DNA from: a virus
Lineage: Duplodnaviria > Heunggongvirae > Uroviricota > Caudoviricetes
Length of the DNA stretch: 63,168 nt
IMG/VR virus record: IMGVR_UViG_2526164633_000022
Location: 1-63,168 of that record
Direction: 5' to 3' (one strand)
Below the pieces are notes generated by a model. That model was given only the letters and a program-made list of their open reading frames with translations, was not told the origin of the DNA and did not search any database. Below are positions 32,930-33,583 of this stretch, piece by piece; positions within the stretch are counted from its first letter, which is position 1; the number at the start of each line of letters is the position of its first letter. The position numbers and the translations under genes are program-made.

Positions 32930-33072
32930 ATCGCCTCAATGAATCGTGATTTATAGAGCGATTTAGCTGTTAGCCGCGACAGGCGCGGCGGTAAGCATGG
33001 CTGGGCCTAGTCCTCCCAGACAAACCACCGAGTTGCCAGGTTGACCATGCGCCTAAGTGGCAACGCCGAAGT

Positions 33073-33098
33073 GCGTTACGAGCTTCCAGTTTGCCCAT
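33073..33098 (+). terminator. Rho-independent terminator-like hairpin
   Basis: GCCCA-TCTTCGG-GTGGGC followed by TTTTTTT. Confidence 0.55.
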
Positions 33099-33583
33099 CT
33101 TCGGGTGGGCGTTTTTTTCAGGGTTTTCGTCATGGTTAGCGACTTTGCGGCGGTTTAGAAACTGACCATTAAAGTAAATGCAAACGATGATCTGATGATG
33201 GTAGCGGCCTAAGAAGCCAGATGCCACGGGGTATGAGTCGTCCCCCGTCAAAAAATCGACCGCAGAGTGTCCCCGTCTGTGTATTAGGGAACGGGGAGGC
33301 ACAACAGGTAAGGGCGCTGGTGTGATTAACCAGATGAACGAGAAGGGGCCATCTGTTGGTCAGCGTCCTTTCCTGTTGCGTCTTCTTTTCAGCGTAACAG
33401 CGGTGCTTAACAGCACTTTGGGTACAGTTCCACGAATTTACGGGTATATCCCGTCATGCTGAAAGCGCTAATCACGCTGGAAGCCAGGGTTATGCATCCC
33501 CTGTTACCGAATTGCAGCCAGGGCGCGGTGCGCCGAAAAGCATACGGAGGTGGAAGCCCTCGCCGGAGACGTACCCGGCAAGT

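Follow-up and report, generated by a model that had tools for sequence, protein, structure and literature searches.

What fills the unusually long gap between dmt and ban in the genome held in IMG/VR virus record IMGVR_UViG_2526164633_000022? The stretch analysed, called the window below, covers positions 1 to 63,168 of that record (63,168 nt) and represents a P1-like phage or plasmid-prophage. Between the end of its dmt gene at 32911 and the start of ban at about 33934/33943 there is a gap of 1031 nt (32912–33942), in which an original prediction, made from the letters alone, had noticed several stems and the possible layout of a small regulatory RNA. Judged by its sequence, the centre of this gap (33120–33297, ~175 nt; all features are on the plus strand unless stated otherwise) is an element derived from enterobacterial ssrA, the gene for transfer-messenger RNA (tmRNA), and spread horizontally among phages. 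With SmpB, tmRNA forms the universal bacterial system for ribosome rescue and protein tagging. The element, here called the tmRNA-derived element, consists of an arm complementary to host tmRNA, a spacer, a tag-like reading frame and a double pseudoknot.

The element came to light as a weak match of the Rfam model tmRNA_permuted to 33107–33212 (24 bits), which placed UAAAUGCAAACGAUGAU...GUAGCGGCCUAA on the tag region of the model. A distant blastn search with 33085–33590 as query returned ~240 non-P1 phages of differing kinds, always over 33122–33297, and a narrower query found the element in 293 phage records belonging to at least six unrelated groups. Its bearers include Ackermannviridae (phiEa2809, PhiSH19, Magnus, phiMAM1), N4-like Schitoviridae (Bp4, ECBP1, PBM-3, KP8), Punavirus, Drexlerviridae (CS01), Skatevirus (KFS-SE2) and Chaseviridae (pAh6-C), as well as Klebsiella siphophages and Klebsiella phage-plasmids. 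Among the matches listed, it is either unannotated or covered by a spurious 'hypothetical protein', and in one case it lies under an RIIA gene. A pattern scan of IMG/VR gave at least 120 loci, and when one genome per species was searched (185,579 species), true copies appeared in Enterobacterales only, in the genera Escherichia, Erwinia, Pantoea, Rosenbergiella, Rouxiella and Pseudocitrobacter. Matches in Bacteroidota were due to chance, the tag frame being absent, and a match on a 'Bacillota' contig from a metagenome-assembled genome (MAG) turned out to be P1-like sequence. The original prediction had allowed that the interval might be identical to that of P1, with annotated genes that had gone unrecognised; 32880–33590 is indeed ~98% identical to P1, but the central RNA element is unannotated in P1 too.

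The window has a single copy of the element. In D6 the module (from 33090 on) follows pmgS rather than dmt, with tRNA genes still downstream, and copies of the KFS-SE2 type are preceded by a putative promoter, TTGACA-17-TAGATT, which ends 13 nt before GUUUUCGU (locus L119 is similar). Given these varied neighbours, the promoter of its own and the lack of ban in many of the phages, the element behaves as an autonomous module. We are confident that the family is real, and no description of such an RNA was found in the literature searched or in Rfam 15.

The most telling part of the element is the tag-like frame at 33180–33212, GCA AAC GAT GAT CTG ATG ATG GTA GCG GCC TAA, which would read ANDDLMMVAA and a stop (for comparison, the E. 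coli tag is ANDENYALAA). No start codon opens the frame, and a TAG stands in frame 24 nt before the GCA. All 132 copies recovered (116 of them unique) have exactly 10 codons with the pattern AN[DE][DEN]xxxx[AV][AP] followed by a stop, and in all of them GCA comes straight after UAAAU. They encode 20 tag variants, including ANDDLMMVAA (the P1 type), ANDDVVLMAA, ANDEQFLAVA, ANDDLMLMAA, ANEEMYLAVA and ANDNVFLAVA. In the 33 distinct nucleotide versions, codons 1, 2 and 10 show little or no change at their first two positions, variation is unrestricted at the third positions of codons 3, 4, 9 and 10, and the stop codons are interchangeable (TAA in 30 versions, TAG in two and TGA in one). An alternative frame opening at AUG is of inconsistent length among the copies. 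What we see is an internal, start-codon-less tag frame of the kind that defines tmRNA, with the resume codon GCA, an end of the hydrophobic-Ala-Ala type and a stop, and under this coding-type constraint the frame is apparently translated.

Immediately upstream, alignments and comparison with ssrA delimit a conserved single-stranded spacer (33158–33179) that ends in UAAAU, and we take its U at −5 and A at −4 to match U85/A86 of E. coli tmRNA, which set the frame. In the host tag (AANDENYALAA, counting the alanine that precedes the encoded residues), SspB reads N3, D4 and Y7 and ClpX reads L9, A10 and A11; in the P1 phage tag, AANDDLMMVAA in the same numbering, residue 7 is M and residue 9 is V.

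The 60 nt before the frame were compared with real E. coli ssrA, whose resume codon is at G90. This region is highly conserved in sequence, yields no conserved pairs in RNAalifold and, in its window version, folds no better than shuffles (z −0.39). Its greater part, 33120–33157, is an antisense arm: the reverse complement of ssrA nt 68–106 with small deletions. Block by block, GUUUUCGUC (33123–33131) corresponds to ssrA nt 96–104 and GCGAC (33139–33143) to nt 87–91, and UUUGCGGC-GGUUUA (33144–33157) is complementary to nt 68–81. When the ssrA reverse complement, UAGUUUUCGUCGUUUGCGACUAUUUUUUGCGGCUUUUUA, is aligned locally with the phage arm, (UA)GUUUUCGUC..(A)GCGAC-UUU-GCGG(N)CUUUUUA, there are 29–32 identities in ~40 columns, a score equalled by 0–1 of 3000 shuffles in six of seven families, with the sense strand at background. 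Predictions with duplexfold place the target at ssrA 49/54–108 for all enterobacterial types, with a mean free energy (dG) of −43.3 kcal/mol vs −30.3 for dinucleotide shuffles (mean z −4.3); for the majority of the 58 cases, not one of 60 shuffles reached the observed value.

The host segments covered by the arm are GCCGC 74–78, the A-rich stretch, U85/A86, the resume codon and tag codons 1–6. We take GCCGC 74–78 to be the 3' strand of pseudoknot 1 (PK1) of tmRNA, adjoining the A-rich loop of PK1, with U85/A86 as the frame-setting nucleotides. The first 40 nt of the element pair at −18 kcal/mol with the element's own message as against −36 with host ssrA; self-pairing is weak because the own message differs from ssrA at the sites targeted by GCGAC and GUUUUCGUC (UAAAU vs UAGUC, and GAU GAU CUG vs GAC GAA AAC).

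Downstream of the frame, pairing conservation and covariation define a double H-type pseudoknot (33226–33297). The hairpins that had been noticed at ~33225 and ~33270 are both present, at 33226–33248 and 33270–33297, and the pairing patterns indicate that they are the two pseudoknots of the tmRNA-derived element. Hairpin A (ACGGGG/CCCCGT, 33226–33231/33243–33248) has a loop, GTCG (33237–33240), that pairs with CGAC (33257–33260), and the linker CGCAG (33261–33265) pairs with CTGTG (33277–33281) in the loop of hairpin B (TCCCCGT/ACGGGGA, 33270–33276/33291–33297). Since a MAFFT alignment (A2) mis-registers the P1-type pseudoknots, pairs were counted in an alignment of 34 majority-type sequences (A6), where hairpin A and both loop–linker helices are paired in 99.8% of 505 cells, compared with 30–53% in slid-partner controls. 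Eight of the 15 pairs have changed on both sides (65 cells), and none of 500 shuffles equals this.

The versions of these helices are diverse: ACGGGG/CCCCGT, GTGAGG/CCTCAT, GCAAGG/CCTTGT and AGTCAGGA/TCCTGATT for helix A; GTCG:CGAC, CCGA:TCGG, CCAG:CTGG, CCAA:TTGG and CTAG:CTAG between loop A and linker; CGCAC:GUGUG, CGCAG:CUGUG, CGUGG:CCAUG, CAUGG:CCGUG, CGGAGU:ACUCUG, CGUAC:GUAUG and CGCAU:AUGUG between linker and loop B; and 17 variants of helix B. P1-type and N4-type copies have equivalent pseudoknot helices built from differing sequences. An unconstrained search for any helix between the loops gave results indistinguishable from shuffles, and it was the position-specific covariation that discriminated; as a single sequence the hairpin region folds unexceptionally (z −1.4). 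Set against the pseudoknot layout of tmRNA, which has PK1 before the frame and PK2–4 after it, the two downstream pseudoknots are strongly supported, PK1 is absent and the upstream 60 nt are without conserved structure.

A tmRNA also has a tRNA-like domain (TLD), with a 7-bp acceptor stem built from the two ends of the RNA, a G3:U70 pair, a T-arm and a 3' CCA, and for this we found no candidate that held up. With ARAGORN, neither the window nor P1 nor any of the 132 copies of the element yielded a tmRNA; the Rfam model RF00023 gave no match on the element; and RF04321 (tmRNA_permuted), with a threshold of 47 bits, reached 24 bits in the window and 27–33 bits at the corresponding position of each phage tested. 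For many copies there is no tRNA within 800 nt, and in pAh6-C the element lies between two long hairpins that are followed by a ribosome-binding site and a coding sequence. In copies of the KFS-SE2 type, where the promoter stands directly before GUUUUCGU, no acceptor strand can lie upstream. Because the TLD was tested for and is absent, the element is not a tmRNA, and both a canonical and a permuted identity are rejected. A partner that could form an acceptor stem with GUUUUCGUC was sought in each copy, and the only candidate was a 12-bp helix in P1-type copies, which shows no covariation; for the terminator hairpin upstream of the element as a permuted acceptor stem there was no support, since no T-arm lies upstream of it; and an apparent T-arm with CCA at locus L131 is part of a separate tRNA-like module.

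Separate tRNA-like sequences do occur near the element. At five loci (L117, L084, L127, L110, L035), 200–450 nt past it, there is a conserved, unannotated tRNA-like module, GUUGUGGUGAAUGCGCAGGCUGAUGCG...GCCGGAGAUCAGCGCCGGCCACCACAAC-CCA, whose terminal stem has 9 bp, whose CCA is encoded and which ARAGORN does not call; tRNA-like RNAs that are related to it and carry large insertions occur in PhiSH19 and L131. Another motif, CCAGACGAUAUCUGAGUGACU(A/U)UAAAAACAGAUGG(G)AGCC(A/G)G-loop-C(C/U)GGC, lies downstream of the element at L007, L078, L113 and L127, in N4-like and other phages. A genuine permuted tmRNA, with the tag ANDNTIVAVNDNFDVDAAVAA, was seen at locus L140 (4601–4961) in a Rickettsiales MAG; it holds GUUUUCGUC before PK1 and AUAAAUGCAAACGAU at the resume site, and the occurrence of GUUUUCGUC...AUAAAUGCAAACGAU in a true permuted tmRNA explains the weak model matches of the phage element.

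What the sequences show is this anatomy with its conservation, the constraint of coding type on the frame, the two pseudoknots and the antisense match to ssrA; from these we infer where the RNA begins and ends, that it pairs in the cell, that its frame is translated and what follows for the phage. The best explanation, which we offer tentatively and at somewhat less than an even chance, is that the element pairs with host tmRNA, masks its tag template and either supplies a phage template in its place or simply blocks tagging. After derepression, the element would be cut out of the operon transcript (or would come from a transcript of its own promoter), with the flanking long hairpins and downstream tRNAs serving as processing signals; the conserved (R)G↓UUUU at its start presumably fits the RNase E motif. 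The 5' arm would then pair with the abundant host SsrA, which would open PK1 and hide the resume codon along with the first codons of the tag. In this way the phage tag template would be tethered to the alanyl-tmRNA–SmpB complex, and the host TLD and SmpB would still enter stalled ribosomes. The phage resume context would sit at the end of ~41–45 nt of single strand from helix P2 (host nt 49–67 plus the phage spacer), the native distance being 41 nt. Rescued ribosomes would append (A)ANDDLMMVAA and not (A)ANDENYALAA, a tag that would differ at positions read by SspB and ClpX; at the least, host tagging would be blocked. The stronger form of this proposal, a tag-swap RNA in which a TLD-less phage message module silences the host resume codon and substitutes its own to give a trans-assembled, chimeric host–phage tmRNA, is possible, though we hold it to be on the unlikely side.

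Several observations weigh against this interpretation. Some of the wobble changes among the last codons could be there for a small hairpin at the stop codon and not for coding, and the combination GUUUUCGUC...AUAAAUGCAAACGAU is by itself not diagnostic, since a genuine permuted tmRNA has it. The duplexfold energies must be read with the knowledge that the program tolerates large loops, that shuffles already reach about −30 kcal/mol, and that the 58 arm sequences are related, so that their z-scores are not independent. In the Aeromonas and Rosenbergiella types the complementarity covers ~11–30 nt and is not significant, consisting of an 11-nt block plus part of the A-rich stretch, as scored on E. 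coli ssrA. In P1 a terminator precedes the element, so that expression depends on read-through. Finally, if tmRNA carried so long a hybrid, its entry into ribosomes might be impeded, or RNase III might cleave the hybrid, and this would favour plain inhibition.

Plain inhibition is indeed the closest rival, and we consider it rather unlikely though a serious contender: the arm would be an antisense RNA that inactivates SsrA by occlusion or by RNase III/E cleavage during lytic growth, shutting down tagging and trans-translation, and the tag-like frame and pseudoknots would be kept, untranslated, as a scaffold or decoy (for SmpB or S1, for example). It draws on the same complementarity to ssrA and on the missing TLD, and a duplex of 35–60 bp would be a plausible RNase III substrate. 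What it leaves hard to explain, if the frame is untranslated, is the constant length of ten codons with tmRNA-like residues, interchangeable stops and variable third positions, together with the retention of the frame-setting UA at −5/−4. Since the frame behaves as a translated sequence, we favour the tag swap over plain inhibition. It is quite unlikely that the element is instead an unrecognised phage tmRNA of two pieces or odd topology, aminoacylated and acting on its own, with GUUUUCGUC as a P2-type strand whose partner is an acceptor piece or a downstream tRNA or tRNA-like gene. Such genes do stand directly downstream in PBM-3, L064, SH19, L131 and P1; in P1-type copies the 12-bp helix could close the molecule, and a T-arm-like hairpin comes after it; and the permuted-tmRNA model matches weakly, with the same motif present in a true permuted tmRNA. 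Yet ARAGORN calls none of the 132 copies, several phages lack any nearby tRNA-like sequence, promoters fire straight into GUUUUCGU with no upstream acceptor strand, and the G3:U70 pair, as read from the sequences, is absent from every neighbouring tRNA-like stem. The closing helix, moreover, is P1-specific and invariant, with one uncompensated mismatch, and the extended antisense match to ssrA nt 68–91 would remain unexplained.

Could the element act only in cis, along the lines of the original prediction? Its position in the window, downstream of C1-controlled promoters and of a terminator at 33092–33118, would suit a structured 5' untranslated region, attenuator or processing scaffold that governs read-through to the tRNAs and ban and has no role on tmRNA in trans, with the short terminated transcript (~32938–33118) perhaps being a small RNA (sRNA). 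The leader that precedes it, element Y (see below), is common to lambdoid early-left leaders, where the terminator of DicF also needs read-through, and the long hairpins resemble processing sites. This account is nevertheless improbable, because the element occurs in many phages with other neighbours, its own promoter and no ban, and because it leaves the tag frame and the complementarity to ssrA unexplained. Barely credible, in our judgement, is an inert relic, that is, ssrA fragments picked up through illegitimate recombination that have since travelled with tRNA clusters. The derivation from ssrA in both orientations and the recombination-prone tRNA region, of which the window's own deletion (below) is an instance, would fit such an origin, but at least six unrelated groups of phages have kept the element, its ten-codon frame is preserved and four of its helices show compensatory changes.

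How does the element compare with what is known? It shares with bacterial tmRNA (SsrA; RF00023; the coding piece of RF04321/RF01849) a start-codon-less frame of ten codons opening GCA AAC GA, a tag ending in hydrophobic-Ala-Ala or Val-Ala and a stop, U/A at −5/−4, and H-type pseudoknots after the frame. Unlike bacterial tmRNA, it has no acceptor stem, G3:U70, obligatory T-arm, CCA or PK1; it measures ~175 nt vs 363, carries a 5' antisense copy of ssrA nt 68–106, falls under all Rfam thresholds and is missed by ARAGORN. Exhaustive censuses list phage tmRNAs only in actinophages (the mycobacteriophage Bxz1 group) and Bacillus phage G, with no P1-like or enterobacterial phage among them (PMC4131195, PMC11915505). 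A fragment from mycobacteriophage DS6A that consists of the TLD alone reportedly inhibits the host's tmRNA on expression in E. coli, which means that partial tmRNAs can act as inhibitors (PMC4131195). Like the RNAs of the Bxz1 group, phage G and DS6A, the element is a phage-borne tmRNA derivative; unlike the complete tmRNAs of the former two and the lone TLD of DS6A, it consists of the message-like part plus an antisense arm, as a mirror image. Phage RNAs that target or mimic host regulatory RNAs, or that are processed from tRNA-cluster transcripts, offer a second parallel: AgvB, from prophages of enterohaemorrhagic E. coli, is an anti-sRNA, and the T4 tRNA cluster yields small stable RNAs. 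We know of no prophage anti-sRNA or stable RNA of the T4 cluster that targets tmRNA or carries a tag frame.

To our knowledge, phage interference with tmRNA had been seen only indirectly, as dependence on ssrA and as actinophage tmRNAs or a tRNA-domain fragment. If the role proposed here is true, the element would be a new viral route to reprogram the quality control of host translation, and if the tag swap is true, host rescue would continue with the addition of a peptide of the phage's choosing, one with altered SspB and ClpX determinants. The element has gone unnoticed in P1, a standard laboratory phage, so that these ideas can be tested with existing genetics. It would also add to phage annotation a widespread RNA family, present in ~300 sequenced phages, that current tmRNA finders miss.

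The remainder of the interval is a more ordinary matter. It had been predicted to lack a convincing open reading frame (ORF), and we agree: 32912–33942 holds no credible one. The 110-aa ORF on the minus strand (32970–33302), already judged unlikely, has no Pfam match, and in P1, P7 and SJ46 frameshifts or stops break it. The T run of the terminator (33112–33118) varies from T6 to T8 among P1 relatives, which accounts for the frameshifts in this spurious ORF; the SJ46 and JL22 records annotate it as a hypothetical protein. Two ORFs of 34 and 46 aa on the plus strand are interrupted in relatives and thus are not coding, and one of 33 aa was likewise rejected. A 45-aa ORF (33456–33593) keeps its frame intact, but it is not coding, because its 33 variable sites are spread evenly over codon positions 1, 2 and 3 (10/12/11); one relative has an internal stop. 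With no ORF credible, conservation in the interval acts at the RNA level. We read the interval as the 5' leader of the ban operon, repressed by C1, untranslated and composed of a chain of RNA modules, a reading we hold with some reservation. The modules would follow one another in the order leader Y and terminator, ~175-nt tmRNA-derived RNA, processing hairpin, P1-specific tail and dead trnA/trnI fusion.

Transcription into this chain is expected to begin at the paired C1 operators Oban-a/b (ATTGCTCTAATAAATTT and its inverted partner; 32903–32930), which were placed by sequence and by position relative to P1 68651–68696 and which overlap P1ban/P2ban; the predicted transcript should start at ~32938. 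The P1 record annotates in this interval Oban-ab with P1ban/P2ban, a misc_feature called 'dicF-like region' and trnA, the last ~455 nt beyond the 'dicF-like region', and a preprint on the P1vir transcriptome does not mention the region between dmt and ban. On the other side of the operators, the window's dmt (30893–32911, 672 aa) has the length of the P7 gene (dam of P7 is 2019 bp, dmt of P1 2265 bp), which makes this segment of the window P7-like and not P1-like.

Just past the operators lies element Y (32973–33064), a three-stem structured leader RNA recognised by homology to a lambdoid early-left leader and by its consensus structure. Stems of the GCGCGGC type and GTTGCCA/TGGCAAC had been noticed here, and they fall at 32973–32989 and 33032–33064: GCCGCG/CGCGGC (32973–32978/32984–32989) and GTTGCCA/TGGCAAC (33032–33038/33058–33064), with a middle stem, CGGT...ACCG, around CTGGG/CCCAG. 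RNAalifold on eight versions of Y gives three stems with 23 pairs, three of which show compensatory double changes, as in GTTGCCA/TGGCAAC vs GTTGTCA/TGACAAC and CTGGG/CCCAG vs CGGGG/CCCCG. Folded as a single sequence, Y is unremarkable (z −0.46). In the folding and covariation analysis suggested in the original prediction, covariation supports the structures and the single-sequence energies of the leader and hairpin regions are unexceptional; their structural significance follows from conservation and covariation across relatives and not from the folding energy of one sequence.

Element Y makes up the main part of the P1 'dicF-like region' (P1 68791–68892, about 33026–33127 of the window). Window positions 32974–33068 match a locus in 4242 of 5426 E. 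coli genomes (~78%) at 77–79% identity, with up to 7 copies per genome. In K-12 this locus lies in Qin, between ydfC and dicB and immediately upstream of DicF, which begins 25 nt beyond the Y-matched segment, and the Qin dicB-operon leader has the same three stems. More generally, Y follows soon after the repressor gene in lambdoid phages, as an early-left operon leader upstream of DicF, dicB or kil. Y-type elements upstream of DicF are common and unannotated in E. coli prophages (L132, 1501–1597, is an example), and no Rfam family covers Y. The Rfam scan that had been proposed for the interval did return sub-threshold tmRNA_permuted and partial tRNA matches, but nothing for DicF: the model of DicF, a 52-nt RNA with a terminator (RF00039), which finds DicF in Qin (76.7 bits) and in mEp460_ev081 as controls, gave no match at E≤10 on window positions 32700–34100, and this rules out a DicF identity for the 'dicF-like region'. 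In a pairwise alignment with Qin, P1 retains the upstream segment and has a terminator hairpin in place of DicF, with a degenerate trace of the DicF 5' end left in it. The 'dicF-like region' of P1 is, on this comparison, a lambdoid early-operon leader element and not DicF.

The terminator itself is an intrinsic one (33092–33118), with the stem-loop TGCCCATC-TTCG-GGTGGGCG at 33092–33111 and T7. A terminator had been predicted at 33073–33098; it exists, and its true site is ~19 nt away. It has a GC-rich hairpin and a T run, folds at a dG of −12.8 (z −3.3), and none of 200 shuffles folds equally well. A stop at 33118 would yield a putative RNA of ~180 nt. The ~140-nt stretch after the operators, to which the layout of a small regulatory RNA had been ascribed, is a structured non-coding RNA, namely the start of the C1-controlled ban-operon transcript with P1's 'dicF-like region'; its reading as a single sRNA is only partly supported; the RNA may be a short one that stops at the terminator, or it may work in cis.

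In both P1 and Qin a terminator stands ~30–60 nt after Y and the downstream genes need read-through, which raises the suspicion of a role in antitermination or attenuation. We suspect, as a lead only, that Y acts in cis in the manner of the put RNAs of HK022, which are processive antiterminators placed close to the promoter (PMC9378689). Antitermination of the put type depends on the ZBD of the RNAP beta' subunit. Like put, Y lies just past a repressor-controlled early promoter and upstream of terminators, and it has the same 9-nt GCGCGGCGG motif as putL; unlike put, which has two stems, it has three. Beyond this motif, alignment of Y with HK022 put is without significance, and homology between them is not established.

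Downstream of the tmRNA-derived element follows a long irregular hairpin, CACAACAGGTAAGGGCGCTG.../...CAGCGTCCTTTCCTGTTG (33298–33382), seen by folding and by covarying versions in other phages; folded as 33298–33384 it has a dG of −42.4 (z −5.5), and it is probably an RNase III-type processing site. In many phages the same module (CACAACAGGUAAGAGCA ... UGCUCUUUCCGUUGUG, with covarying forms such as ACAUAACUGUGAGAGUA/UACUCUCUCAGUUAUGU) flanks the element and adjacent RNA modules, and it stands on both sides of the element at five loci (L009, L035, L131, L034, L006). Next comes a 3' extension (33383–33583) found in P1-type phages only and conserved at the nucleotide level, not as coding sequence. 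Within it, GGTGGAAGCCCT (33549–33560) can form the 12 bp mentioned above, 5 of them G-U, with 33120–33131 of P1-type copies, beside a hairpin GCCGG-N8-CCGGC at 33562–33579; this helix is specific to the P1-type family and invariant, has no covariation, and carries an uncompensated mismatch in one relative.

The suspicion that P1 has additional genes here and that the interval has been remodelled proved right. The window from 32880 to 33645 is 97.7% identical to P1 (NC_005856, 68645–69409). Between this region and ban, P1 has trnA, trnT, plp, upl, tciA, tciB, tciC and trnI, and P7, SJ46 and D6 have similar gene sets. A 1585-bp deletion relative to P1 has removed the 3' part of trnA, trnT, plp, upl, tciA/B/C and the 5' part of trnI, leaving the window phage without any of the three P1 tRNA genes. 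What remains is a chimeric pseudo-tRNA (33584–33659), delimited by alignment, Rfam and ARAGORN, in which the 5' acceptor strand of trnA(Asn) is joined to the remainder of trnI(CAU), with the crossover inside the shared TAGCTCAG (33591–33598). Its acceptor strands, GAUGGUG/AGGGGCC, can pair at 3 of 7 positions, the Rfam tRNA model covers only positions 8–63 (41 bits) and not a complete cloverleaf, and ARAGORN finds zero tRNAs in the window. The fusion is a product of tRNA–tRNA recombination. The junction occurs in none of 5,426 complete E. coli genomes and in no phage record, so that the deletion is private to this phage, or possibly an assembly or laboratory event. Neither the Y leader nor this private tRNA-fusion deletion had been annotated before, and both are ordinary beside the tmRNA-derived element.

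The last segment before ban is a leader segment, element X (33661–33771), 90% identical to an unannotated segment of lambdoid/Stx phages. Its homologue was seen soon after the repressor gene in lambdoid phages of the Stx2c, cdtI and mEp460 types, where X lies ~150 nt upstream of Y; in P1 this order is reversed, with Y preceding X.

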